DNA of 64,000 nucleotides from the IMG/VR virus record IMGVR_UViG_2541047680_000004; one strand, written 5' to 3'. Every line of letters begins with the position of its first letter. The first letter of the stretch is position 1. The position numbers were made by a program, and so were the translations under genes. The stretch comes from a virus. Taxonomy: Duplodnaviria; Heunggongvirae; Uroviricota; Caudoviricetes. Below are positions 3,754-49,929 of this stretch, piece after piece. The notes under the pieces are model-generated. The model had not been told where the DNA came from. It saw only the letters and a list, made by a program, of their open reading frames with translations, and did no database searches.

Positions 3754-4089
3754 TTATTGCAGTCCATTTTTTACGCCATACGCGGCTAACCCCAAAAGCA
3801 GTGCAGTAATAATGAACGACGTTATTTTAGAAACAATGCCGCCAAAGAACCCACTGGAGATGGAATCTAACCGGTTAAGGAGTTTGTCCAGATTGGAGTG
3901 TTGAATACTATGTTGCGCCGGGGTCATATCACCAAAGTAGGTTTTCAGCTGATCATTGACCTCTTGGCCAATTTCTTCACGTAGCTCTTTACCTAATTTA
4001 CCAACAACCTCCCGAGCAACGATCGCGGCAATACGCTCAACTTGCTCTGTTGTAACGCCCGCCATCTCGTTCGACATATTTTCCTCCAT
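3754..4089 (-). CDS. holin-like small membrane protein
   Basis: 111 aa with C-terminal TM segment ITSFIITALLLGLAAYGV; first gene of lysis cassette. Confidence 0.35.
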   Translation of the reverse strand: MEENMSNEMAGVTTEQVERIAAIVAREVVGKLGKELREEIGQEVNDQLKTYFGDMTPAQHSIQHSNLDKLLNRLDSISSGFFGGIVSKITSFIITALLLGLAAYGVKNGLQ

Positions 4090-4140
4090 GAAAAGTCAAA
4101 TCGGGATGGCGGATTTATATCACATTTCACCCTTTTGTTG

Positions 4141-4160
4141 TAGGTGTGTGCTTACCTATC
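4141..4160. promoter_or_regulatory. family-2 dyad-like motif (TAGGT..CTTACCTATC)
   Basis: shares the TTACCTATC word with sites at 30062, 56083 and 62343; intergenic between lipoprotein and holin genes. Confidence 0.3.
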
Positions 4161-4389
4161 ATTCAGCATTGCAACGGACTGATGAGAAAGCACCTACTCC
4201 AACCCATCGCCAGTTATAGATGCTACCCGCTTTGTATAAGGTATAGTCGTTCACTTTTTTAACAGCATATATGGGTATGACTGTCTCCTGTCCACCAATG
4301 ATAGCCTCACCATAACATATAGGTGTCGGCAATTTCTGGCAGCCAGTAAGAGAGAGAACAACAGCTATTGTTAGAAATAATCTTTTCAT
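4159..4389 (-). CDS. small lipoprotein
   Basis: 76 aa; signal peptide MKRLFLTIAVVLSLTGC with lipobox LTGC. Confidence 0.5.
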   Translation of the reverse strand: MKRLFLTIAVVLSLTGCQKLPTPICYGEAIIGGQETVIPIYAVKKVNDYTLYKAGSIYNWRWVGVGAFSSVRCNAE

Positions 4390-4399
4390 CGTTTACTCA

Positions 4400-5008
4400 T
4401 CAGTTATACAGATTTCTATTTATTACCGGTACTCTGCCATTTACACTAAAACTATGGCCGCCATTAAGTTGGTTTACGAATATAGAGCTAACAGTATTTC
4501 CATATGCCGCATATCCATAAACCATTGTCATGGCCCCGCCCGGTACTGGAACCGCGAACACATTTGCATATGTTGGGATTATCGCTGGCGGGTAATCAAA
4601 AACATGCCCTCCAGAACTGTTCCACTCCGTATTATTAAGAAAGGTAAATGAAAGTGGGATATTTGCCGTATTATAGATCTCCTCTCCTCGCGCATTGAAA
4701 AAACTCATGCCCCAAGTTTCTTTTTTGGCTATACCTTTCGAAAATACGTATATCGTGGCACTAGAGTCGCTACCCTGACCTCCGAAACTGTAAATCACCT
4801 GGTTGTTACGCACTATTCTGTTGGCTATTAATGAAACAGCTTTCGAATAGGCAACAAAAATCATCGGTGAACGATCTGGAGATATTTGGGTGTTAAACTC
4901 TGTCCCGCCGGACAAAGAAACAACCTGCTTTCTCTGAAAAACGATAGGAGACAAAGAAGGAGACATCCAGACCTTCCCGTCAGATCGATATATCTTGCTT
5001 CCGTACAT
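4400..5008 (-). CDS. hypothetical tail-fiber-associated protein
   Basis: 202 aa, Gly/Ser/Asn-rich; start overlaps upstream stop in TAATG arrangement (translational coupling). Confidence 0.35.
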   Translation of the reverse strand: MYGSKIYRSDGKVWMSPSLSPIVFQRKQVVSLSGGTEFNTQISPDRSPMIFVAYSKAVSLIANRIVRNNQVIYSFGGQGSDSSATIYVFSKGIAKKETWGMSFFNARGEEIYNTANIPLSFTFLNNTEWNSSGGHVFDYPPAIIPTYANVFAVPVPGGAMTMVYGYAAYGNTVSSIFVNQLNGGHSFSVNGRVPVINRNLYN

Positions 5009-5262
5009 TATTTTTGAAAAACCAATATGTTTAAATTACCACTAGCTCCAGACCACGAAATGGTATTTCCAGAAACCGTAAGACTTGTGTATTTTCCATT
5101 GGTTACGTCCATTATGTAATAGTCGATTCCCAATCCCGCCTCAACCTCATATGTTCTACTTCCTGAACCAGAGGGAGTAAAATAATCGAGGTAATAAACA
5201 GGGGCCAACGCATCGACCATCTCCTGTCTTGATGGCGACCAAACCTGTGCACCATAGCTCAT
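5008..5262 (-). CDS. hypothetical protein
   Basis: 84-aa ORF directly downstream of the tail fiber gene. Confidence 0.3.
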   Translation of the reverse strand: MSYGAQVWSPSRQEMVDALAPVYYLDYFTPSGSGSRTYEVEAGLGIDYYIMDVTNGKYTSLTVSGNTISWSGASGNLNILVFQK

Positions 5263-5322
5263 AAATATATCCTTATACTTTTAAGCAGGGGCTGGTTTAG
5301 TTCCAGCCCCGATTGAAGTTGT

Positions 5323-8300
5323 TTATTCTTTAGGTGAATTTAACTTCGTTTCAAGCTCCTCAACCCTTTTGGTCAATTGCTGAATATGATGAATGAGTGG
5401 TACAACCAAACGCTCATACATCACTCCTTCAGCGACCATACCATTTGAGGAAATATCTCCTGGAGAATCATTATTTGTTGGTTCACGCCAATGGACATAT
5501 TGCGGGGCAATCTCACCAACCTCTTCAGCAATAAGGCCGTAATACCCCCAATCCTTTCGGTCACCTCGACAAATTGAACGATACCAAACAGGTCTTAATG
5601 ACAAAAGTTCATCAGCATATCGATCTTGTAATGTTTCAATATCCTTTTTATAGCGCCTTGAAGATGTTGAACGCCAAACTGTATTGATACCTGGGTTTGG
5701 ATCAATGTACATATTGGCACCGCTAGTAGTTGTGCCAATATCCCATATAGCAAACCCTCCACTACCGCCTGATTTGACAACCAGTGTTTCAGCAATAATA
5801 TCCAGGTTGCCACTATAGCCTGTCAGTGATGATCTGCTTGCATAGGAACTTAGAAGGTTTGTTACCTCTGTTTTCGTATAAGCATTAAGGTTAGCCGCAG
5901 TCAAAGTAATATCGGCAGAGCCATCAAACGCCACACCAGCAATTTTCCTTGCTGTCTGCAATTTTGTGGCTGTTGCGGCATTACCAGTAGTATTCTGATT
6001 ACCGGTTGTATTCACACCAGGGATTGAATCCTTAGCGGTATATACCTGCGCCCACGCTGACCATGCCGCATCAGTGGTATCTCTTCTGGAGCGAATGAAA
6101 ACCGGCGCATGTGCACCGCTCGTACCACTCCAGCCAATAAGCAACTCGCCCTCACCAGCAGCACTCGCACCTTTCATGTGCAATACGTTGCCATACGTGG
6201 TCGGGTAGCTATTGTTGTACGCCTCGTACATTTGAATGCCAGCAGTACCTTGAGTAGAACCGCTTAAAGCCGTAACTCGACCACGAGAAACCAATGTATT
6301 AATATTGATATCACCTGAACCATCAAACTTAACACCATTGATGTTTCTCGCTGTTTGCAACTTCGTAGCTGTTGAAGCATTGCCATTCAAGCTACCATTT
6401 ACGCCACCAGTAACATTTAGTCCATTACCAATAGACACAACACCGCTGCTATTATTAATTATAATCGGTCGCAAACTGTTCCATGAACCTAACGTATCTC
6501 CTGATGCTGTTAGCATGAAATATGTGCTGCCGCCGTCATTACGGATAAAGAACCCGTAGTTACCGTAAGCAATGCGGAAACCATTTGCATATTTTGAAAC
6601 GATCTCACCAGAAGACGTCAACCCTCCAGATAATGTGCCACCTGAAAGCGGTAATGCTCCTACATCAGAAGCTGTTGGTTTGTTTCTAGTGTTATAAGAA
6701 CGACGCCAGCCTGGCGCATAATCACTCCCATTGTACACATAAATAAATTCCGCATTATTAACACCACCATGACCTGATGTTGTTGCCGTTGTAACACGAA
6801 TAGTGTAGTGGCTTGTTGCCTTATTACTAAACACCTCAATCACGGAACCAGATAGATCGATCCTACCGCAACCAGTGTCGTCTATATAATTATTGTTGGC
6901 GTAAGTCCATGAGCACCGTGCGATCCAATGTTTGTTTGTAAATGCCCCCTGATTGTTTAGCCAAGTTATAAATTGAGCAGTCGTAAATGCCGTTCCGTTA
7001 CCACTATTTAACCATCCAGCGGCAGCGGTTGGTGCGTTTATATCAGCCGGCTGAGGCATAAATCCAGTCGTGTAAACCTGCTCCCAACCACTTTCAAAAC
7101 CATAGCCATCTCTTGAGGAACGGTAGAACAGACCACCATTTTTATAGTGAGCTTTAATTTGAAGCGTACGGCAACTACCTACACCGGTATAAAAGTTGGC
7201 AAGAATATAACTGGCGCCTGTTCTAGTTACATTGTAAGCACCAGATTCAGCATTCCACGGCACGCCACCATCAGCATCCGCATATGACCCTGTTGCCCTT
7301 CTTGCGAAAGCGGCAACATGCGCAGCGGTTAAAGTGATATCAGTAGAACCATCAAATGGAACACCGGATATTTTTCTTGCAGTCTGAAGTTTTGTAGCAG
7401 TTGCAGCATTACCAGTGGTGTTCTGATTACCCGTAGTGTTTACACCTGGAAGGTTGATATTTGCAGAACCGTCGAAACCAACTCCACCGATAGATCTTGC
7501 CGTCTGCAATTTCGTTGCTGTACTTGCATTACCATTTAATGTTCCGGTGATCCCACCAGTAACAGACAACGGACCTGAAACTGTTCCTCCGGTTGTTGGC
7601 AGTGCTCCAATATCTAACGGCGTCGGTTTCTGATGTGTGCTATACATCGTATAAACAACACCATCGGTAACGCTGGAAGGCTTACTCGCTGAATATGTTG
7701 GCGATGTATAAACAGAAACTGACGCATTTGCAGTACAATCCCAATGGATATTTACACTCGTCGCATAATTGCCAATTTCAACGTAAATATCATATGTATC
7801 GCCGGATGTGTTGATCCAGGCGAAATTCGTTAATCCGACAGCTGTACGCTTCCACAAAGCACCTGTAATCCCTTTGGGGTTTCCATTGCCTGCTCGTAGA
7901 ACCAGTTCTGAAATGCCTGCCTGATGTGGGGAGCCGACGTTGTAACCAGCGCCACCAATCAATGCGATGTAAACGATGGAACTCGCTTGTGGCATTGTAA
8001 CAGTAGCCAGTTTGAACCACCCGGCCCCGCCAGAGAAAGACATCGTTATTGAATTTAAAGTACCAATATCTTTCGGCGTTAATGTGATATCCGCAGTCAG
8101 TGCTTTCCCGTTAATTTTTCGGTTAGATGGCACCCTGCTGTTCGCATTGTCATTGACTACTTTAACTGCTTTTGGCGTTGCGGCCAGCGATTCACTGGTG
8201 CTGTCGACAGCACTGCTAAGTTTCACAACACCTTTAGTTGTAAGGCTTGCGTCTTCCATCGCAACTGCACCGGCAATCTCTTCAGCACGATCAGCAGCAG

Positions 8301-9621
8301 CTTCCGCACGGGTCGCAGCGGATTCAGCAGCAGTTTTGCTCTGAGATGCTGCCGTCGCACTGCCTGCCGCCTCTGTTGCTTTCGTGGATGCCGTCGTGGC
8401 GCTGCCCTTCGCTGCTGACGCCTGTCTGGTCGCCTCATCTTTTGAAGCAGACGCAGATGATGCCGATGACGCTGCCGAACTGGCGGACGATGCGGCTGCC
8501 GTTTTTGAGGATTCTGCACGGGTTTCCGACGCTTTCGCGTTCGTTTCGGATGTCTTCGCTGCGGAAGCAGACCTCGCTGCTGCGCTGGCCTGTTCAGTGG
8601 CTTCGCCAGCCTTCGTTGTGGCTGTTGAAGCAGATGATGCGGCACTTTCTGCCGATTTTCCGGCGGCGGTGGCACTGGCTGAGGCCTGCCCGGCACTTGT
8701 TGACGCGGCACTGGCAGACGACGCAGCCGCTGTTTTTGAGCCTGCCGCAGCCGAGGCGCTCTGTCCCGCTGCCGTTTCAGAAGACCTGGCGTTCGTCTCG
8801 GACGTTTTTGCCGCCTTCGCGGAATTTCCTGCCGCCGTTGCCGAGGAAGCGGCATTACTGGCGCTCGAGGCTGCGCTCGTTTCTGATGATTTCGCTGCCT
8901 CTTTTGAGGCCGCCGCATCCCGGGCTGAGGTGGCAGCTTCTGACGCCTTCGTGGTCGCGGTGGATGCAGAAGTGGCTGCAGATTTTTGTGACGCTGCAGC
9001 ATTCGTTTCAGACGTTTTCGCGGCACCGGCACTGGTGGCCGCCGCGCTTTTTGAGGACTCTGCAGCGGATGCACTTTGAGACGCTTGAGAGGCTTTTTCT
9101 CCAGCGGTATTGGCGCTTTCTGCTGCTGCGGCAGCACTGGCCGCCGCCTCACGAGCTTTGTCGCCAGCAGCATCAATCGCGTCAGTGTTATTTTTATACC
9201 ACTCAACGTTTTCGTTGTGCTCGTTGACGATCTGCATTAGCGGCTTAACGGTCACTTCTGTACCGTCTTCACGCTCGATTGTCACCTCATCCAGAGCAGT
9301 CAACCAACTGCGCATGGACTTGGAATCAGCCGACATACGCGACATTAGTGCTGTAAAGCGCGCGCTAAACTGTGTTAAGTCGCCTTCATAGGTCGTAATG
9401 ATTCGGCACGGAACTTCAGACTGAGTTTCGCCGGTATAGGGTTCTGAGAGAACAATGTTCGTATCACTGGTTACGCGCTTGATCTCATACAGCTTATTGT
9501 CGGGGCCAATGACGATCATCCCCGGCAACACACCATTAGCTGTTACGTTCCAGGCTGTCCCTGCCCCAACCAGAGTATTGCTGCCCTGTGTAAATGTGAT
9601 AGTACCTTCCCTGTACCACAT
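5323..9621 (-). CDS. side tail fiber with C-terminal intramolecular-chaperone (S74-type) domain
   Basis: 1432 aa; tail-fiber motifs GVVKLSSAVDSTSESLAATPKAVK and repeated NGNASTATKLQTAR blocks; C-terminal chaperone-like segment (KKDIETLQDRYADELL...YGLIAEEV); long Ala/Ser-rich tract. Confidence 0.85.
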   Translation of the reverse strand: MWYREGTITFTQGSNTLVGAGTAWNVTANGVLPGMIVIGPDNKLYEIKRVTSDTNIVLSEPYTGETQSEVPCRIITTYEGDLTQFSARFTALMSRMSADSKSMRSWLTALDEVTIEREDGTEVTVKPLMQIVNEHNENVEWYKNNTDAIDAAGDKAREAAASAAAAAESANTAGEKASQASQSASAAESSKSAAATSAGAAKTSETNAAASQKSAATSASTATTKASEAATSARDAAASKEAAKSSETSAASSASNAASSATAAGNSAKAAKTSETNARSSETAAGQSASAAAGSKTAAASSASAASTSAGQASASATAAGKSAESAASSASTATTKAGEATEQASAAARSASAAKTSETNAKASETRAESSKTAAASSASSAASSASSASASKDEATRQASAAKGSATTASTKATEAAGSATAASQSKTAAESAATRAEAAADRAEEIAGAVAMEDASLTTKGVVKLSSAVDSTSESLAATPKAVKVVNDNANSRVPSNRKINGKALTADITLTPKDIGTLNSITMSFSGGAGWFKLATVTMPQASSIVYIALIGGAGYNVGSPHQAGISELVLRAGNGNPKGITGALWKRTAVGLTNFAWINTSGDTYDIYVEIGNYATSVNIHWDCTANASVSVYTSPTYSASKPSSVTDGVVYTMYSTHQKPTPLDIGALPTTGGTVSGPLSVTGGITGTLNGNASTATKLQTARSIGGVGFDGSANINLPGVNTTGNQNTTGNAATATKLQTARKISGVPFDGSTDITLTAAHVAAFARRATGSYADADGGVPWNAESGAYNVTRTGASYILANFYTGVGSCRTLQIKAHYKNGGLFYRSSRDGYGFESGWEQVYTTGFMPQPADINAPTAAAGWLNSGNGTAFTTAQFITWLNNQGAFTNKHWIARCSWTYANNNYIDDTGCGRIDLSGSVIEVFSNKATSHYTIRVTTATTSGHGGVNNAEFIYVYNGSDYAPGWRRSYNTRNKPTASDVGALPLSGGTLSGGLTSSGEIVSKYANGFRIAYGNYGFFIRNDGGSTYFMLTASGDTLGSWNSLRPIIINNSSGVVSIGNGLNVTGGVNGSLNGNASTATKLQTARNINGVKFDGSGDININTLVSRGRVTALSGSTQGTAGIQMYEAYNNSYPTTYGNVLHMKGASAAGEGELLIGWSGTSGAHAPVFIRSRRDTTDAAWSAWAQVYTAKDSIPGVNTTGNQNTTGNAATATKLQTARKIAGVAFDGSADITLTAANLNAYTKTEVTNLLSSYASRSSLTGYSGNLDIIAETLVVKSGGSGGFAIWDIGTTTSGANMYIDPNPGINTVWRSTSSRRYKKDIETLQDRYADELLSLRPVWYRSICRGDRKDWGYYGLIAEEVGEIAPQYVHWREPTNNDSPGDISSNGMVAEGVMYERLVVPLIHHIQQLTKRVEELETKLNSPKE
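8290..9175 (-). repeat. low-complexity Ala/Ser/Thr-rich coding repeats inside tail fiber gene
   Basis: recurring KTSETNA / SASAA units in translation; GC-rich repetitive codons create long spurious ORFs in other frames. Confidence 0.7.
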
Positions 9622-9664
9622 GTTGAATATGCTCCTTGATTTGGTGGGCTATCCTTGCCCCCAT

Positions 9665-9683
9665 TAAGTGTGTACCTACTTAT
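9665..9683. promoter_or_regulatory. family-2-like dyad (TAAGT..ACTTA)
   Basis: TAAGTGTGTACCTACTTAT in the J/tail-fiber intergenic gap. Confidence 0.25.
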
Positions 9684-9712
9684 TTTTACCGATATAAATA
9701 TTTTTTTCTACA

Positions 9713-12700
9713 TTACAGAAGGCCAATTCTTACTCGTAGGACGTTGTTATCGTCATAAACGTCAATCCGCTGACCATTTATGACCAGTCGCCCATTACCC
9801 CCGCTATTACCGTTGATCTCAAGCGTTCCATTTTTGCCGAACCGCCATCCAGATCTACCGCTAACAAAATTGGTAGATTGCAGATCGCCTACTTTTGCAT
9901 TGGTGATTGTGCCATCCTTGATATACGCACCATTCATATAGGCGATACTGTTTTCGATAACAAATGGCGTGGTGATCTTCCCGTTAACAGAGTTGACCAA
10001 ACCAAACCTGTCAGCCTGCACCAAAAACTGAGAAAGGCCAGTGGTGTCGATACCAAGCGCAATACCAGCAACATACTTCTGCCCTCCGCTCGTTGAAGTT
10101 TCCATTTTCAACGTCCACGCGGTTGACACTTTTTTGTTGGTATCAGCAATAGCTGTTGCCTGCTGTTGAATTGTCGCGGTATTTCCATCCACCTCTGCTT
10201 TCAGAGTATCGATTCGCCCACTCAGAGCATTATCTGCCTGCGTTCTCGCTGTCGTTTCAGTTGTTACCGCCGCGGAAATGTTGGCTGCCGTTTGAGACTC
10301 TAAGTTTGTGATTTGAGTCGCCAATGCAGCATCTTGCTCTGTACGCGTTTTCGTTTCGGTTGCTACAGCCGCTTTAATATCCTCTTTGTATTGAGAGGTC
10401 AGCTTGGTGATCTGAGACGACAACGCCGAGTCAGCATCAGTTCGAGCCTGCGTTTCAACTGCAACGGCCGCACTAATATCTTTCGCTGTCTGTGCTTTTA
10501 AACTTGAAACCTCTTTTGTTAAAGCGGTATCACCATCAGCACGAGCCGTTGTTTCTCTGGCAAGAGATGCCTCGAGATCATTAGCTTTTGCTGTAAGAGA
10601 CGAAATCTGAGTGGACAATGCACTATCGGCATCAGTCCTTGCCTTTGTCTCTACAGCAACCGCTGCGGCAATATCAGTTCCGGTTTGTGCTCGCAGGCTG
10701 TTAATTTCTCGTGAGAGCGCCTGGTCAGCACTTGCTCTGGCCTCCTGCTCCTGAGTGATGGCAGCGGATATATCACCGTCAACCTTTGACTGAAGCTGGT
10801 TTATTAGTTTGGCTAACGCAGAGTCCCCGCTTGCTCGGGCCTCCTGCTCACTACGTATTGCAGCAGAAATATCATCATCAACCTTTGCCTGAAGTTGGGT
10901 GATCTGGCTTGCCAGAGCCGAATCTTCCGTTGCTCGGGCTTCTTGCTCTTCCTTAATAGCTGCGACGATATCGTTGCTTACTTTCGACTCAAGCTGAGTG
11001 ATCTGTGTCGTCAGAGCTTCATCGGCAGATGTGCGAGCCTCCTGCTCTGTACTAATCGCCGCGCTGATATCTCCTTCAAACTTAGATTGCAGCTGAGTGA
11101 CACGCTTTGCCAACGCTTCATCGCCATCGGCACGAGCGGTGGACTCTTCCAGAATACTGGCCTTAATGTCTTCGCCAATTTCTACGCGAATTTCCTCAAC
11201 CTTCGTGGCCATTGCAGACATATCATCAGCAAAGGTTTTCTGTGTTGTTGCGATCTTCGCGTTATTGACCATCTGCTTGTGCTGGTCTTCATCTTGACGA
11301 AGAGCCAGGTCAATATTTGTTTTGGCTAACGCCTCAATGTTCGTAGTCAGTTCTGCACTGGCACGATCGACCTCTGCAACCGTCTTTTTCATTTCTTCAA
11401 CGGCAGCGGAGCTTTCCTCTACCGTTGACTGCAACACTTCCAGTTGTTTAGCGTTTGCAGCATCGCCTTCAACACGAGCCTCGCTTTCCTTAGCAATAAG
11501 AGCCGCCGCTTCATCTCTTGCAGCCTTTATTGCCTCGACTGTATTAGCGAGAGCTTTATCGTGTTCAGATACGGTGTTTTCGATTTCAACAATTGCAGCA
11601 TCAGTGGCATCAATTTTTTCAAACGCTTCATTGACCTTGTCGATCGTTGCCGAAACCTCACCTTTAAGCTCGGTTTGTGCGTTCTCCAAAGCATCGCTAC
11701 GCTCGTTGAATTTTATTTCAAAACCCGCGAGGTTATCGCTGAACTGCTTATCTAATTCAGCTATATCTTCCTTAACGTCGTTTACCGACCCCTCCAAAGA
11801 TTCGACGCTCTGGTTGATATGCTCATTTAACTCGTCAACTGCTTCTTGAGAGGCTTTGCTGTTGATGTCCTCAAGCAGAGCCTGACCAAGCTCGGAAGAT
11901 GTAATTTTGCCAGCCAGGAACGACAGTACATCGCGAGTTGTCGCCTCTGTACCCAAGTTTGAGTTCGGAGGGCTTAACATACCTCGCTTGTTCGATGCTC
12001 GAACCCAGTAATACCACGTTTCGCTATCCCCAAGACCAGCATGTGTAAAGGTGGTGCTTGCAGACTCTGCGATCAGTTTCGCCGTATCCAGATTGTTGGT
12101 CTGGGATGCGTAAACATTAATGTGATCAAGGTCTACCGAATCTGGATTAACCCAATTCAGTATCACATTACGATAGTCTCCAACGGCCGTTAATGACGTT
12201 GGGGCATCCGGCGGTGTCATTGTGCCCAACACCTGATAAACGGTACTGATAATCTCTGTTTTTTTACCGTTGAATGAAACCGCATACAGTTGGAAGTCGT
12301 AGCGTCCATTCTCCGCGACATTAACGATTTCGTATTGCTCTTCGGTTACACGCGCCGATTGCCAGTTCGATACATTGTTTTCATCAGAACGTCGCCAACT
12401 GATCCAATACTCTGGAGATTTTCCTTCCCATGTTGCAGTCAGTTTTACTGACAGGTTGCCCGGGCTTGAGAGATAAGTCCCTTCAGTGATTTGCAGATTA
12501 GATGGCTTGGAGTAAGTTGGGTCCAATACCGTCGTATTCTGCGGGATCAGCGTTGCACCATTGTCGATTGCCTCATATTTAGACGGATTGTTCTCAACAG
12601 CGGTGATGTCAAAGCTACCCGGCGTTTCCCCCTGCGCGATGTTAACGATGCGAACGCGCATAGGTTCGAGATCTGGTTCTGTAATTGTCCAGACACCGTT

Positions 12701-14443
12701 CAAAACAGGCGTTTCCGCTGACGACAGGGCTTTTGAAAACGTAACCTTTGTTATGTTTTCGCCAGTTTCAAGAACATCGCGTTCAACGATTTTGCCTTCC
12801 TGATTCAATATCCGAATAAAGCTGCCGCTTTTAGCTAACGACACAGGCGCATCGAGAGTGATGCTGTTTTTGGTAAACTCCACAATTCGACCGGAGTTAC
12901 GTTTACCTGCACGATATTTGTTCTGAATCAGAACGGTTTCACCGGGCATCAGAAATGAGGCGTCTAAGCCGGCAGTAAATGTAATTACATCCGACTCCAT
13001 TCTGGCGGTATACAAAAGCCACAAACCAACTCGGTGAGCCTGGCCTCGGCTTGTACATCCAAATGCTACGACTTCTGTTTTACGCTCACCATAACGGCGC
13101 ATTGCGTCCTGATCTTCAACGTACTCGATGTTTTGCTTATAACCGTCCTCCTTGTTGTTGTAGGTTACGAGCGCAACGGATGGGCGATCTTTACGCGCAG
13201 AACCTTTATAGGTAAACAGTCCATCTTTGACGTTGGAGTTGGTAAACATCATTACCGGATCTGATGGGCTATCCTGCATGATGTTAACCATGCCACCAGC
13301 CCAAAACACCATGCCGCGGAATGCACCGGCAATATCCTGAATTAATCGGTATGCGTCTTGTCGACTGGTGATCTGCGTATTGATTGCAAAGCGTTTCTCT
13401 TTACCCCCAAAGCCATCATCGACCTCTTCGTCACAATATCGACCAATCTGGTAGAGCTGGCCGAGGTCAATCATGGATTCCGACACAAATTGCCCAAGAC
13501 CATACCGAGTATTGGTAAGCAAATCGTAGAGAATCCACGCAGGGTTTGAAGAAGACAACAGCTTAAAAGTACCGTCCCATACGCCGACATAAGTATTGGT
13601 GTATTCGTTGTAGTTTGACGGTACTCGGATTTTGATACCGCGCACCAAATACGAACGGGAAGGCATTGTGCTACCAAACTGCTCTGAATTGACCTTCAAG
13701 CCAACAAGAGCAGAGTTAGGGTAGTTCATTGGCGTGTCGACAATCTCACCGATGGAATCAACCCATGTGTCGTTGTAGAGGTACTGGCTACTATTATCAT
13801 CTGTAAGACGAATCACCCTAACCTTGTATGCACGACCAGGCTTAGGCAGTTTCAGCTCATAGCTACGGTAATACACGCCGGTTTTCTTTGCCGTTAGCGT
13901 GATATCAACGCTTTTCTCACCTTCTGCCACTACATCAGAAAATGTTGCGTCTGCGTTGGCGATCTGGAATTTGTACTTCACCGTAGTGCCATTTGTATCG
14001 CCAGAGCTTTTATCAACGCTACGTAAAGAGGGGAATTTCATGATGACACGAACGCGATCAGCTTCATCGTTATCGATTGAAACCGTAACGTCGTGTGTTT
14101 TTTTAAGCTGAATATTTACGGACTTAGGCGTTTCGACAAAATCAAAACCAGCCATTGGCGTCTGATCTTGTGAGCCGTCACGAAAATCCCATGTAATACC
14201 GCTGAAGTTGGAAGAGCCATCTTCATTCAAGATCGGTAAATCGTCGATGAAGATCGACTTTGCGCCATTTACCAGGCCACCGATAACCCCCTCGCCAAGA
14301 AGGTCGAGGATGGCTGCCATAGCACGAGAATTGACAGTATCATCAGCTTCAACCGGGGTACGGCTGGAGCTTTTACTTTTCTTGCCACCAGCACCGGCAA
14401 TAAGAAGCGGTAATTTTTTCTTCTTGAACTGTTCCATGTCCAA
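9713..14443 (-). CDS. tail tip / host specificity protein (lambda J-like) with expanded coiled-coil repeat stalk
   Basis: 1576 aa; blocks matching lambda J (FGCTSRGQAHR, YCDEEVDDGFGG, SALVGLKVNSEQFGS, YVAGI..LSQFLV); about 380 aa of roughly 29-aa tandem repeats before the C-terminal domain. Confidence 0.9.
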   Translation of the reverse strand: MDMEQFKKKKLPLLIAGAGGKKSKSSSRTPVEADDTVNSRAMAAILDLLGEGVIGGLVNGAKSIFIDDLPILNEDGSSNFSGITWDFRDGSQDQTPMAGFDFVETPKSVNIQLKKTHDVTVSIDNDEADRVRVIMKFPSLRSVDKSSGDTNGTTVKYKFQIANADATFSDVVAEGEKSVDITLTAKKTGVYYRSYELKLPKPGRAYKVRVIRLTDDNSSQYLYNDTWVDSIGEIVDTPMNYPNSALVGLKVNSEQFGSTMPSRSYLVRGIKIRVPSNYNEYTNTYVGVWDGTFKLLSSSNPAWILYDLLTNTRYGLGQFVSESMIDLGQLYQIGRYCDEEVDDGFGGKEKRFAINTQITSRQDAYRLIQDIAGAFRGMVFWAGGMVNIMQDSPSDPVMMFTNSNVKDGLFTYKGSARKDRPSVALVTYNNKEDGYKQNIEYVEDQDAMRRYGERKTEVVAFGCTSRGQAHRVGLWLLYTARMESDVITFTAGLDASFLMPGETVLIQNKYRAGKRNSGRIVEFTKNSITLDAPVSLAKSGSFIRILNQEGKIVERDVLETGENITKVTFSKALSSAETPVLNGVWTITEPDLEPMRVRIVNIAQGETPGSFDITAVENNPSKYEAIDNGATLIPQNTTVLDPTYSKPSNLQITEGTYLSSPGNLSVKLTATWEGKSPEYWISWRRSDENNVSNWQSARVTEEQYEIVNVAENGRYDFQLYAVSFNGKKTEIISTVYQVLGTMTPPDAPTSLTAVGDYRNVILNWVNPDSVDLDHINVYASQTNNLDTAKLIAESASTTFTHAGLGDSETWYYWVRASNKRGMLSPPNSNLGTEATTRDVLSFLAGKITSSELGQALLEDINSKASQEAVDELNEHINQSVESLEGSVNDVKEDIAELDKQFSDNLAGFEIKFNERSDALENAQTELKGEVSATIDKVNEAFEKIDATDAAIVEIENTVSEHDKALANTVEAIKAARDEAAALIAKESEARVEGDAANAKQLEVLQSTVEESSAAVEEMKKTVAEVDRASAELTTNIEALAKTNIDLALRQDEDQHKQMVNNAKIATTQKTFADDMSAMATKVEEIRVEIGEDIKASILEESTARADGDEALAKRVTQLQSKFEGDISAAISTEQEARTSADEALTTQITQLESKVSNDIVAAIKEEQEARATEDSALASQITQLQAKVDDDISAAIRSEQEARASGDSALAKLINQLQSKVDGDISAAITQEQEARASADQALSREINSLRAQTGTDIAAAVAVETKARTDADSALSTQISSLTAKANDLEASLARETTARADGDTALTKEVSSLKAQTAKDISAAVAVETQARTDADSALSSQITKLTSQYKEDIKAAVATETKTRTEQDAALATQITNLESQTAANISAAVTTETTARTQADNALSGRIDTLKAEVDGNTATIQQQATAIADTNKKVSTAWTLKMETSTSGGQKYVAGIALGIDTTGLSQFLVQADRFGLVNSVNGKITTPFVIENSIAYMNGAYIKDGTITNAKVGDLQSTNFVSGRSGWRFGKNGTLEINGNSGGNGRLVINGQRIDVYDDNNVLRVRIGLL
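10250..11330 (-). repeat. tandem coding repeats (about 87 bp units) inside J-like gene
   Basis: repeated ISAAI..EQEARA..DSALA..QITQLQSKV units in translation. Confidence 0.65.
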
Positions 14444-46210: not shown

Positions 46211-48244
46211 TTACTTAACCTGGTGGCCAGGTTTAGCACCAGCATCCGGGCTTAACAGGAAGATATCTTTCCCGCCGGGGCCAGCAGCCATCACCATGCC
46301 TTCAGAGATACCGAAGCGCATTTTACGCGGAGCCAGGTTAGCCACCATAATTGTGTGACGACCAATCAGTGCCTGTGGGTCTGGATAAGCAGAACGGATG
46401 CCTGAGAAGACATTACGCTTTTCACCACCGAGATCCAGCGTCAGGCGCAGCAGCTTGTCAGAACCTTCAACAAACTCTGCGTTTTCAATCAGCGCCACGC
46501 GCAGGTCAACTTTAGCGAAGTCGTCAAAGGTGATGGTTTCCTGAATCGGGTCGTCTGCCAGTGGGCCAGTTACCGGTGCGGCTGTGGCTTTCACTTCTTC
46601 TTTGGATGCTTCCACCAGTGCTTCCACCTGTTTCATATCGATACGGTTATACAATGCCTTGAACGGATTCACTTTATGGCCCAGCAGCGGTTGCTGGATA
46701 CCATCCCAGGTCAGTTCTGTATTCAGGAATGCTTCTGCACGTTCAGTCAGTTTCGGCAGTACCGGTTTCAAGTAAGTCATCAGCACGCGGAACAGGTTAA
46801 TGCCCATAGAGCAAATCGCCTGCAGATCGGCATCGCGTCCTTCCTGCTTCGCCACCACCCACGGAGCCTGTTCATCAACATAGCGGTTAGCCAGGTCAGC
46901 CAGTGCCATGATTTCACGGATAGCTTTACCAAATTCGCGGCTTTCCCATGCTTCGCCAATCACTTCAGCGGCATCAGTAAAGGTTTTGTACAGTTGCGGG
47001 TCAGCCAGTTCGCTTGCCAGCACGCCGTCAAAACGCTTGTTGATAAAGCCTGCATTACGGGAGGCCAGGTTAACCACTTTGTTCACGATATCGGCATTCA
47101 CGCGCTGAACGAAATCCTCCAGGTTGAGATCGATATCATCAATGCGCGAAGAGAGTTTCGCAGTGTAGTAGTAACGCAGGCTGTCGGCGTCAAAATGATT
47201 CAGCCAGGTGCTGGCTTTAATAAAGGTACCGCGAGACTTAGACATCTTCGCGCCGTTCACCGTCACATAGCCATGAACAAACAGGTTGGTCGGCTTGCGG
47301 AAGTTGCTGCCTTCCAGCATTGCTGGCCAGAACAGACTGTGGAAGTAAACAATATCTTTACCGATGAAGTGGTACAGCTCGGCGGTGGAGTCTTTCTTCC
47401 AGTATTCATCGAAGCTTACGCTGTCGCCGCGCTTGTCGCACAGATTCTTGAAAGAACCCATATAGCCAATCGGCGCATCTAGCCAGACGTAGAAATATTT
47501 ACCCGGCGCGTTCGGAATTTCAAAACCGAAATACGGCGCGTCGCGGGAGATATCCCACTGTTGCAGGCCAGATTCAAACCACTCCTGCATTTTATTTGCC
47601 ACCTGCTCCTGCAACGCACCGCTGCGGGTCCATGCCTGCAACATTTCGCTGAAAGAGGGCAGATCAAAGAAGAAGTGTTCAGAATCACGCATTACCGGCG
47701 TAGCGCCAGAAACCACCGATTTCGGCTCGATCAATTCAGTCGGGCTGTAGGTCGCGCCGCAGACTTCGCAGTTATCGCCGTATTGATCCGGGGATTTACA
47801 TTTCGGGCAGGTGCCTTTCACAAAACGATCCGGCAGGAACATGCCTTTTTCCGGGTCGTACAACTGAGAGATAGTGCGATTTTTAATAAAACCGTTCTCT
47901 TTCAGGCGAGTATAGATAAGCTCAGACAACTGACGGTTCTCTTCGCTGTGCGTCGAGTGATAGTTGTCATAGCTGATGTTAAAGCCTGCGAAATCAGTCT
48001 GGTGTTCCTGACTCATTTCGCCAATCATCTGCTCCGGTGTGATACCAAGTTGCTGTGCTTTCAGCATGATCGGCGTACCGTGGGCATCGTCGGCACAGAT
48101 GAAATTAACCTCGTGGCCGCGCATTCGCTGGTAACGAACCCAGACATCAGCCTGGATGTGCTCCAGCATATGGCCGAGGTGGATTGAGCCGTTAGCGTAC
48201 GGCAGCGCGCACGTCACCAGAATTTTCTTCGCGACTTGGGTCAT
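46211..48244 (-). CDS. metG: methionine--tRNA ligase
   Basis: 677 aa from [25 protein letters not shown] (HIGH-type) with KMSKS; C-terminal tRNA-binding domain; near-identical to enterobacterial MetG as I recall it. Confidence 0.97.
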
Positions 48245-48401
48245 AGTAGGCATTACTTCTTTGTAGTGAAAAGGGGCTTGATAGTAACAAAATGGCCTTA
48301 TGTCTGCCATGTGATAACAGCATTTCTCATAAATGATTAAATGTCGCAGCTGGAGTACACTACAAGGCGACAATTGCGCAAATTAAAATAAAGGAGACGG
48401 G

Positions 48402-49502
48402 ATGAGCGAGTCCAAATCGCCGGATGCCCTGAGAGCAATGGTAGCCGGTACGCTGGCTAATTTTCAGCACCCAACCCTGAAACACAACCTGACTACGCTT
48501 AAAGCGTTACACCATGTTGCGTTGATGGATGACACACTGCATGTCGAACTAATCATGCCTTTCGTGTGGAATAAGCCTTTTGAAGACCTGAAAGAGCAAT
48601 GTAGTGGTGATCTGCTCCGTATCACTGGCGCAAAGGCTATTGACTGGAAGCTGTCGTACAACATTGCCACGCTTAAGCGCGTCAAAAACCAACCAGGCAT
48701 TAATGGTGTTAAGAATATTATCGCCGTAAGCTCAGGCAAGGGCGGTGTAGGCAAATCGTCCACAGCAGTAAACTTGGCACTGGCTTTGGCTGCTGAAGGT
48801 GCGAAAGTTGGTATTTTGGATGCCGATATCTATGGTCCATCAATTCCAACCATGCTGGGCGCGGAAAACCAACGTCCAACCTCACCGGACGGTACTCACA
48901 TGGCACCTATCATGTCTCATGGCCTGGCAACCAACTCTATTGGTTATCTGGTCACCGACGACAATGCAATGGTGTGGCGTGGACCGATGGCCAGCAAGGC
49001 GCTGATGCAGATGTTGCAGGAAACACTGTGGCCTGATCTGGACTATCTCGTTCTCGATATGCCGCCGGGCACTGGTGATATTCAATTGACGCTGGCGCAG
49101 AACATTCCTGTAACTGGTGCGGTTGTGGTAACTACGCCGCAAGACATCGCGCTGATCGATGCGAAGAAAGGCATTGTGATGTTCGAAAAAGTCGAAGTGC
49201 CGGTACTAGGTATCGTCGAAAACATGAGTGTGCATATTTGCAGTAACTGCGGTCATCACGAGCCAATTTTTGGCACCGGTGGCGCACAGAAACTGGCCGA
49301 GAAATACAACACGCAGTTGTTAGGCCAAATGCCACTTCATATCTCTCTTCGTGAAGATCTGGATAACGGAACACCAACCGTTATTAGTCGTCCAGATAGC
49401 GAATTTACGGCTATTTATCGTGACCTCGCAGATCGCGTTGCTGCCCAAATGTATTGGCAAGGTGAAGTAATACCTGGCGAAATCGCATTCCGCGCAGTGT
49501 GA
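48402..49502 (+). CDS. apbC: Fe-S cluster carrier ATPase Mrp/ApbC
   Basis: P-loop SSGKGGVGKS, CxxC motif (CSNCGH); divergent from metG as in E. coli. Confidence 0.95.
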   Translation: MSESKSPDALRAMVAGTLANFQHPTLKHNLTTLKALHHVALMDDTLHVELIMPFVWNKPFEDLKEQCSGDLLRITGAKAIDWKLSYNIATLKRVKNQPGINGVKNIIAVSSGKGGVGKSSTAVNLALALAAEGAKVGILDADIYGPSIPTMLGAENQRPTSPDGTHMAPIMSHGLATNSIGYLVTDDNAMVWRGPMASKALMQMLQETLWPDLDYLVLDMPPGTGDIQLTLAQNIPVTGAVVVTTPQDIALIDAKKGIVMFEKVEVPVLGIVENMSVHICSNCGHHEPIFGTGGAQKLAEKYNTQLLGQMPLHISLREDLDNGTPTVISRPDSEFTAIYRDLADRVAAQMYWQGEVIPGEIAFRAV

Positions 49503-49539: not shown

Positions 49540-49929
49540 CTACATCACAGGACAATCATCAAACTCGCCACTTCTTGCGTCGTTGATAATGTGAGTGATC
49601 ACACCAAACACGGCATTGCTGCCCGTGCATCCATCATCATCCTTTGGCAATGCTTCCTTCTTACCAGTTCTTAAATCCTCCAGATGCTGACGTGGATACT
49701 TCCGGTATCTTTTTACGCGATATTCCCCATCCAGAGCACATACAAGAAGAGATCCATCAACAGGAGTCAGTGAGGAATCGACCACCAGCAATGCACCCTG
49801 CAATATTCCCTCACGATGATGACTATCAGCCGCCCTCATGAAGTAGGTCGCTGAAGGATGTCTAATTATCTGCTGATCAAGAGAAATACGGCTCTCAGCA
49901 TAATCCGCCGCAGGAGAAGGGAAGCCCAT
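49540..49929 (-). CDS. UmuD'-like S24 peptidase-fold protein (HumD-like)
   Basis: begins MGFPSPAADY, aligning with UmuD from the RecA cleavage site onward; Ser (ADSH) and Lys (RVKR) positions conserved; in-frame TAA 15 nt upstream of ATG; RBS AAGAGG. Confidence 0.85.
   Translation of the reverse strand: MGFPSPAADYAESRISLDQQIIRHPSATYFMRAADSHHREGILQGALLVVDSSLTPVDGSLLVCALDGEYRVKRYRKYPRQHLEDLRTGKKEALPKDDDGCTGSNAVFGVITHIINDARSGEFDDCPVM

Follow-up and report, generated by a model that had tools for sequence, protein, structure and literature searches.

A putative modular side tail fiber and a T1-type receptor cassette in an SSU5-like phage-plasmid sequence of Escherichia coli

What is a 1432-amino-acid (aa) tail protein of strikingly uneven composition made of, and what do the two small genes directly behind it do? 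These questions are raised by positions 5323-9621 of a viral sequence of 64,000 nucleotides (nt) (Caudoviricetes; IMG/VR record IMGVR_UViG_2541047680_000004), the whole of which is called the window below. The explanation that we favour, with a probability of about 0.8, is that the large gene encodes a mosaic side fiber similar to that of Salmonella phage SSU5, combining an SSU5-type N-terminus, a coiled coil of the lambda Stf kind, a shaft of the Mu S/gp34 kind and an S74 chaperone end, while the small genes, together with cor, form a T1-type cassette serving the tip of the central fiber J. A first-pass annotation, based on the letters and their open reading frames (ORFs), had described a side tail fiber with an Ala/Ser-rich tract considered unusual for a shaft, T4-like repeats and a C-terminal chaperone, followed by small genes left unexplained. 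The side fiber, the shaft motifs and the S74 domain withstood the present analysis; the unusual nature of the tract and the unexplained status of the small genes did not.

The 5.8 kb around the fiber gene share 99.6% identity with pAVS0225-A, a circular E. coli plasmid of 111.7 kb, and many similar E. coli plasmids of about 110 kb match this region likewise, at least 80% of it being covered in 54 complete E. coli genomes. The nearest phage relatives detected by megablast are the SSU5-like elements Cyrano, CMS-2020a and SSU5 itself. In the annotation of pAVS0225-A, partition genes adjoin a complete siphovirus morphogenesis block. Because of this combination of genes in a close relative, and because the nearest phages are SSU5-like, the window is, as judged by sequence, an SSU5-like phage-plasmid of E. 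coli. The genes follow one another on the minus strand as J-like central fiber, side fiber, 84-aa gene, 202-aa gene, cor, holin, endolysin and Rz. The succession of J, fiber, small-gene pair, cor, holin and endolysin is the same in SSU5, and places the fiber gene between J and the lysis genes.

9713-14443 (minus strand): J-like central tail fiber of 1576 aa whose C-terminal tip is of the T1 type (matches to Pfam Phage_Tail_Tip, Phage-tail_3 and FNIII-A_GpJ; 27-32% identity to T1 gp33, including the C-terminus)
5323-9621 (minus strand): side (lateral) tail fiber coding sequence, 1432 aa, 147.4 kDa before processing (ORF and translation; PHROG tail fiber families)

The fiber ORF starts with an ATG at 9621, runs through 1432 codons in a single unbroken frame and stops at 5323-5325, its length being far beyond chance. 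The ATG is preceded, at a distance of 9 nt, by a GGAG Shine-Dalgarno sequence, and the stop of the J-like gene is 91 nt away from this ATG. The minus-strand gene proposed in the first-pass annotation is thus real and intact, and its assignment to side tail fibers agrees with matches to PHROG tail fiber families and with relatives among lambda Stf, Mu S and SSU5. In RefSeq (PGAP), the counterpart on pAVS0225-A is labelled a pseudogene with “missing N-terminus” (positions 7324-11157 of the extracted locus L001), although its frame is intact and open over 1441 codons. A frameshift as the source of this label was ruled out, as the sole indel relative to the window is intergenic, at 9660/9661; the label looks like an annotation artefact.

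Immediately after the fiber gene, three genes could be assigned to known families.

5008-5262 (minus strand): 84-aa protein of the T1 gp32 family, similar to N15 gp22, read as an accessory of the J-tip receptor cassette and not as a fiber part (phrog_557, E 1.3e-24)
4400-5008 (minus strand): 202-aa all-beta protein of the T1 gp31 family, similar to N15 gp23, a probable J-tip receptor-binding protein (phrog_425, E 5.5e-49)
4159-4389 (minus strand): cor, FhuA-linked superinfection exclusion lipoprotein with lipobox LTGC (NCBIfam NF047972, equivalog, 80.7 bits against a cut-off of 31; phrog_1119)

As had been claimed, the two small genes are coupled: they overlap by one base (TAATG) at 5008, and are therefore regarded as translationally coupled. 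They need not be left unexplained, being members of the T1 gp32 and gp31 families that travel with cor. Besides the T1 proteins, phrog_557 and phrog_425 take in SECphi27 gp73 and gp72 as well as ORFs B22 and B23 of Stx phages. The T1 record gives the order J, gp32, gp31 (coupled) and cor, and notes that gp32 and gp31 resemble N15 gp22 and gp23 as well as two proteins of HK022. The locus in the window shares with T1 the PHROG families, the small gene preceding the large one, the coupling and the adjacent cor, and the C-terminus of its J-like protein aligns with that of T1 gp33. It differs in that J and the cassette are kept apart by the 4.3-kb fiber gene, as in SSU5, and in that cor lies on the same strand. 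A passage of the KanT1 paper, citing Wietzorrek et al. 2006, places the cassette in T1, HK022, N15, ES18 and phi80, all FhuA-dependent (PMC13164509). The BASEL study and a receptor screen of 255 phages describe the locus downstream of gpJ as encoding a receptor-binding protein (RBP), accessory proteins and a cognate exclusion lipoprotein (PMC8594841; bioRxiv 10.64898/2026.04.02.716166).

Structure prediction points in the same direction. For the 202-aa protein, a single-sequence search gave 5 close relatives, and seeding with the T1, SECphi27 and Stx homologs enlarged the alignment to 98 sequences. The fold of the resulting model matches a solved virion RBP, the LptD-binding protein of phage Oekolampad (Bas18; PDB 9RPT chain C), and recurs in uncharacterised proteins of many phages. 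The two proteins are only 14% identical, and the Oekolampad RBP is larger, with a gene of 930-960 bp (PMC13035648) and 254 residues in the solved chain. Its partner is an Rtp45-like exclusion protein in place of the Cor found here, which leads us to expect a different receptor. No match to either small protein was obtained in Pfam or NCBIfam, and searches of PDB sequences with both gave nothing meaningful. The possibility that the 84-aa protein is a paralog of the N-terminus of the 202-aa protein, both of which start with M(S)YG, found no support (E 3.7). Most likely, the 202-aa protein acts as an RBP on the J tip and the 84-aa protein as its accessory, FhuA being the predicted receptor.

The pair may instead work with Cor in superinfection exclusion, as membrane proteins. 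This is suggested by the names that the pair inherits from PHROG and by its constant association with cor, and such a role is assumed in the KanT1 paper (PMC13164509). Neither protein, however, has a signal peptide, a lipobox or a hydrophobic helix (maximum hydropathy over 19 residues is 0.54 and 1.24, respectively, compared with 2.02 for the holin), which argues against the inherited labels. Together with the match of the 202-aa model to a virion RBP, and with the assignment of proteins of this locus as RBPs and accessory proteins in the 255-phage study, this makes an exclusion function of the pair unlikely.

Somewhat less probable still is that the small genes belong to the fiber, assisting its assembly and/or providing a tip adhesin in the manner of gp38 or Tfa. 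Their position immediately downstream of the fiber gene and their coupling would fit this role, and the RBP-like fold of the 202-aa protein would also suit a tip adhesin. Gene order in relatives speaks for a different partner. In T1 the pair directly follows J, and the lateral fiber gene is about 3 kb further on and on the opposite strand, so the pair is not tied to fiber folding; in SECphi27 the pair converges on J together with a cor-like gene. SSU5 carries the pair after a fiber that has its own gp38-like adhesin gene, and in Cyrano the pair and cor are both missing. The pair is thus kept despite a dedicated adhesin and lost along with cor, which indicates that it forms a unit with cor and not with the fiber. 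In addition, searches of Pfam and NCBIfam revealed no similarity of either protein to Tfa, gp38 or other assembly families.

Returning to the fiber as the product of a mosaic gene, its modules are arranged as follows, listed from the C-terminus.

5326-5664 (minus strand): Peptidase_S74 intramolecular chaperone domain, residues 1320-1432, 13.2 kDa, with a predicted cut at Thr1319|Ser1320 and Lys1325 as partner (Pfam, conservation, AlphaFold2 and Foldseek)
5665-5835 (minus strand): short distal tip, residues 1263-1319, the C-terminus of the predicted mature fiber (bounded by the last shaft motif and the predicted cut; low confidence in the monomer model; exchanged in Cyrano at about residue 1266)
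5836-7563 (minus strand): beta-structured shaft of the Mu S/P1 S/T4 gp34 type, residues 687-1262, with four motifs (Pfam Gp34_trimer; PDB 8ju3, 5yvq, 4uxe and 5nxf)
7564-8256 (minus strand): junction motif GVVKLSSAVDSTSESLAATPKAVK and a module common to lambdoid side fibers, residues 456-686, probably globular to judge from its composition (phrog_21552)
8257-9180 (minus strand): alanine-core coiled-coil rod of 44 heptads, residues 148-455 (308 aa), corresponding to the Ala/Ser-rich tract (heptad periodicity; homology to lambda orf-401)
9181-9621 (minus strand): N-terminal anchor domain of the SSU5 type, residues 1-147, presumed to attach to the tail (similarity to SSU5 gp21)

The profile search for the C-terminal domain found Pfam Peptidase_S74 (PF13884) at residues 1320-1376, with 27 bits against a cut-off of 22 (E 5.5e-6) and covering positions 1-57 of the 58 in the model. 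The match begins at Ser1320 in the local sequence W-R-S-T1319 | S1320-S-R-R-Y-K1325-K-D, and the domain occupies the last 113 residues of the ORF, right after shaft and tip. Across 76 aligned homologs, K1325 never varies, while R1317, S1318, T1319, S1320, S1321 and Y1324 are each conserved in at least 90%, giving the pattern R-S-T-S-S-x-x-Y-K. The AlphaFold2 monomer model of residues 1244-1432 reaches a predicted local distance difference test score of 91-97 across the S74 domain and ends in a helix at residues 1402-1428. Its credible Foldseek matches in the PDB are all self-processing chaperones: MyRF ICA (7dc3, E 2e-5), the GA-1 appendage protein (3gud, probability 0.99) and the K1F endosialidase (3gw6, probability 0.80). 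A chaperone domain at this end, as first proposed, is therefore credible by sequence, conservation and predicted fold.

Among the closest parallels is the T5 fiber pb1 (LtfA, 1396 aa), a long side fiber of similar size with an Ala/Ser-rich segment of the “AAKTSETNA” type and a C-terminal chaperone of about 113-133 residues. Cleavage of pb1 takes place at Thr1263-Ser1264, with Lys1269 activating Ser1264, and does not occur in the S1264A mutant (PMC4690869). The spacing of Thr1319-Ser1320 and Lys1325 is identical to that in pb1. The two fibers differ in their shaft and receptor-binding tip, which are unrelated, and in the low identity of the chaperones; T5 is also virulent and has a separate collar protein. 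Cleavage at the predicted site Thr1319|Ser1320 would yield a mature chain of 134.2 kDa and a fragment of 13.2 kDa. An S74-like domain that is retained uncleaved or inactive, leaving the fiber at full length, would be in keeping with a Pfam score just 5 bits over the cut-off. It is improbable in view of the Thr-Ser pair and the Lys five residues downstream that are conserved in the 76 homologs, the resemblance of the fold to self-processing domains and the finding that the T5 fiber is active only after processing (PMC4690869).

The first-pass annotation had further suggested that the chaperone domain would make a separate assembly chaperone unnecessary. The evidence agrees, as no gene of the Tfa or gp38 type was found next to the fiber. 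The annotation of pAVS0225-A lists no tail fiber assembly protein, and tblastn of the whole window with a single probe, the gp38-like adhesin of SSU5, detected no counterpart. The lambda arrangement, with a gp37-like tip and a separate Tfa gene downstream, was likewise not found, the C-terminus being an S74 module. In SSU5, the S74-bearing fiber gp21 is followed by the gp38-like adhesin gene SSU5_022 (positions 5667-6203 of locus L003; Pfam Gp38_N, E 2.5e-20), from which it follows that an S74 domain alone does not exclude extra tip proteins.

Between the last shaft motif and the predicted cut there are only 57 residues, so the mature tip would be small. The last 189 residues of the fiber (tip and S74; 5326-5892, minus strand) share 48-57% identity with proteins of about 231 aa that stand alone in T1-like phages (positions 1632-2339 of locus L004), such as SECphi27 gp79 and the “putative lateral tail fiber chaperone” of PeterMerian. 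Those proteins are separate polypeptides with their own N-terminal coiled coil, whereas here the segment is fused to a shaft; the unit of tip and chaperone consequently exists in fused and in split form. The fiber of Cyrano (positions 4079-8306 of locus L002) shares 80% identity as far as about residue 1266, just past the fourth motif, and then diverges and has no S74 domain. Ahead of its holin gene, Cyrano has neither a chaperone gene nor the small-gene pair nor cor.

The shaft confirms the T4-like repeats that had been noticed in the translation. Pfam Gp34_trimer (PF21446) matches residues 956-1055 above its curated threshold (E 1.5e-29), and solved chains of Mu S and T4 gp34 match the shaft by sequence with E values from 9.6e-65 to 4e-20 (8ju3 of Mu S, 9.6e-65; 5yvq, 2.6e-33; T4 gp34, about 1e-21). 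Four copies of GNA(S/A)TATKLQTAR.I.GV.FDGS are present, with TATKLQTAR at residues 701, 741, 1084 and 1217, and copies 2 and 4 are nearly identical together with their flanks. Internal repeats were not listed by BLASTP of the fiber against itself, but were found by a shuffle-controlled local alignment (score 254, compared with a shuffle maximum of 78). The motifs coincide with module boundaries. Shaft modules and GNA.TA.KL.T.R..G..FDGS motifs are shared with Mu S, P1 S and T4 gp34, which differ in belonging to contractile-tailed phages, in relying on separate chaperones (U/U', gp57A) and in having no S74 domain. No match to the fiber was obtained in NCBIfam.

Upstream of the shaft, phrog_21552 matches residues 455-767, and the conserved junction motif GVVKLSSAVDSTSESLAATPKAVK aligns to lambda orf-401. 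Megablast matches to lambdoid stf genes span 7094-9097 of the window. In the Ala/Ser/Thr tract, residues 146-460 consist of 39% Ala, 22% Ser and 11% Thr (72% together), and contain neither Pro nor aromatic residues. When residues 148-455 are written in rows of seven, they form 44 consecutive S-A-x-x-A-A-x heptads without a stutter, with Ala at both core positions; the tract had previously been estimated at about 290 aa, somewhat short of these 308 residues. Fourier analysis of the Ala pattern gives a power of 34.8 at a period of 3.5 and 17.2 at 7.0, while the maximum of 200 shuffles is 13.1, so that the periodicity is about 2.7 times that of the best shuffle, and self-identity of the tract peaks at each multiple of 7. 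A register of this strictness is the sequence signature of an alanine-core alpha-helical coiled coil. If helical, the rod would be about 45 nm long, at about 0.15 nm per residue.

The same tract has a counterpart in Ur-lambda Stf (orf-401 plus orf-314). Residues 202-349 of the fiber and 205-352 of lambda orf-401 are 72% identical over 148 aa (BLASTP), and a second alignment of the tract to orf-401 has one gap, of exactly 21 residues or 3 heptads. Residues 102-393 of Ur-lambda Stf are described as the “proximal coiled-coil domain” in an AlphaFold3 model of the full-length protein guided by cryo-electron tomography (PMC12617516), and by alignment the tract is homologous to this domain. The relationship extends to the nucleotide level, with 90-95% identity to lambdoid stf genes over about 89% of the tract length, about 83% to lambda itself and 78% over 116 nt to the T5 ltf (pb1) gene. 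The 5.8-kb query containing the tract has matches in 4148 of 5426 complete E. coli genomes, and its partial phage matches fall on the tract and the adjoining region. The tract can thus not be called unusual for a fiber shaft, because it is homologous to the lambda Stf coiled coil and because similar DNA occurs in lambdoid stf genes and in most E. coli genomes. That the tract is instead an unusual flexible tether, intrinsically disordered and of low complexity, and not a structured shaft, as its extreme composition and the lack of a Pfam domain on it might suggest, is very unlikely, given a strict register over 308 residues with core Ala and no Pro, a lambda homolog modelled as a coiled-coil rod consistent with the tomography, and a gap relative to lambda that is an exact multiple of 7. 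The Ala/Ser tract is accordingly to be read as a coiled-coil rod instead of disorder.

Local G+C content peaks at the tract (62%, compared with about 45%), and long ORFs of 231-327 aa occur there in alternative frames (8223-9206, minus strand; 8247-9227 and 8384-9079, plus strand). Both features result from the GCN-rich codons of the heptads, and the additional ORFs are most likely spurious by-products. An equivalent artefact ORF in lambda is annotated as orf206b, opposite orf-401. The heptads were also considered as a recent repeat expansion at the DNA level, which was rejected since Tandem Repeats Finder detected only one weak 21-bp array in the tract.

The rest of the comparison with lambda separates the N-terminus from the rod. 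The gene downstream of J, the homologous proximal trimeric coiled coil and the junction motif GIVQLSSA..TPKAVK are common to both fibers. Lambda Stf differs by its dissimilar N-terminal collar domain, by a gp37-like tip folded by a separate Tfa and by the lack of S74; the locus in the window has no lom, and the T1-type cassette follows the fiber. No alignment was obtained by BLASTP between residues 1-200 of the fiber and residues 1-200 of orf-401, and the fiber thus has no recognisable StfN collar. Instead, its residues 1-282 are 76% identical to residues 1-282 of SSU5 gp21 (1260 aa), beyond which only short pieces of shaft are shared. The gene for gp21 occupies the same genomic slot, its product also carries Gp34_trimer and Peptidase_S74, and it is followed by the pair and cor. 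The middle and distal parts of the two fibers differ, and SSU5_022 is an additional gene with no counterpart found in the window. Taken module by module, the fiber is, as read from these alignments, assembled from parts that circulate among enterobacterial phages.

A working model can be outlined for this apparatus. Three fiber chains would trimerise, with the C-terminal domains acting as a trimeric template that would nucleate the folding of the interdigitated distal shaft. After the trimer has reached its correct fold, Lys1325 would activate Ser1320 to cut the Thr1319-Ser1320 bond, releasing the 13.2-kDa fragment and leaving the 134-kDa mature chain with its tip exposed. The tip may then bind a surface receptor, probably a glycan, reversibly. 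In parallel, the two small genes and cor would act as a cassette of the T1/N15/HK022/phi80 type, in which the 202-aa protein docks on the J tip as the probable RBP, with the 84-aa protein as accessory, and the Cor lipoprotein blocks the same receptor, predicted to be FhuA.

Several points weigh against this explanation. BLASTP identity to T1 gp31 and gp32 is low, 26-28% (E 0.016 and 2e-4), so family membership rests on PHROG profiles and gene order, and the fiber gene separates the cassette from J. The exclusion role for the pair assumed in the KanT1 paper also has to be counted here. On the side of the fiber, the Pfam score of 27 bits for S74 is modest, the only solved structure found with the C-terminal sequence is a weak match (a T5-like fiber, 8hqz_d, E 0.031), and the chaperone model is a monomer with low confidence in the tip region, residues 1244-1310. 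Self-cleavage, the trimeric state and incorporation into the virion are predictions.

Short-tailed Stx phages carry the pair (ORFs B22 and B23 of an Stx1 converting phage; positions 5768-6618 of locus L005) between a tail fiber gene and lom, and the locus examined contains no cor. This observation is also unfavourable to the explanation given above, in that the pair is not strictly tied to Cor and FhuA; the FhuA specificity predicted here rests mainly on cor.

As for what these assignments add, the fiber itself contributes little, as all its modules belong to known types and dozens of E. coli plasmids carry annotated genes that are nearly identical. Mildly new are the similarity in fold of the cassette protein to the LptD-binding RBP, and the occurrence of the tip-plus-chaperone module in fused and split form. 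They suggest two joint readings, which we put forward tentatively and at slightly under even odds: that the FhuA and LptD RBP families belong to one superfamily of J-tip adhesins, and that tip and S74 domain together are an exchanged self-folding cassette. The former follows from the fold that the 202-aa protein has in common with the Oekolampad RBP. A recent survey calls the FhuA-, LptD-, BtuB- and YncD-specific RBP families of small siphophages “unrelated”; if the first reading is true, at least two of them would be divergent members of a single structural superfamily, and SSU5-like phage-plasmids of about 110 kb would use the same detachable-RBP system. According to the second, the last ~190 residues would be exchanged at the conserved linker GNAATATKLQTARKI.GV.FDGS.DITLTAA.

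The receptor apparatus of this phage-plasmid could then be divided into a swappable lateral fiber and a T1-type J-tip cassette with Cor, the latter predicting FhuA dependence. SSU5-like phage-plasmids reportedly carry antibiotic resistance genes, which gives sequence-based prediction of host range some practical value.

Between the fiber gene and the receptor cassette there is one further feature.

5288-5310 (minus strand): G+C-rich hairpin of 8 bp, 12 nt after the fiber stop, without a U-tract (centroid fold -17.3 kcal/mol, z -3.5)

The hairpin is stable on folding but was not called in a terminator scan of the region, and could be a weak terminator or an element stabilising the mRNA.

Far from the tail genes, the window contains a full-length methionine--tRNA ligase gene, metG (46211-48373, minus strand, 1018 bits), a divergent apbC/mrp iron-sulfur carrier gene (48402-49502, plus strand, 759 bits) and a gene for a HumD-type translesion subunit (49540-49929, minus strand). 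On the E. coli chromosome, metG and mrp are neighbours as well, which would suggest a captured chromosomal segment. All three genes are annotated in pAVS0225-A too.

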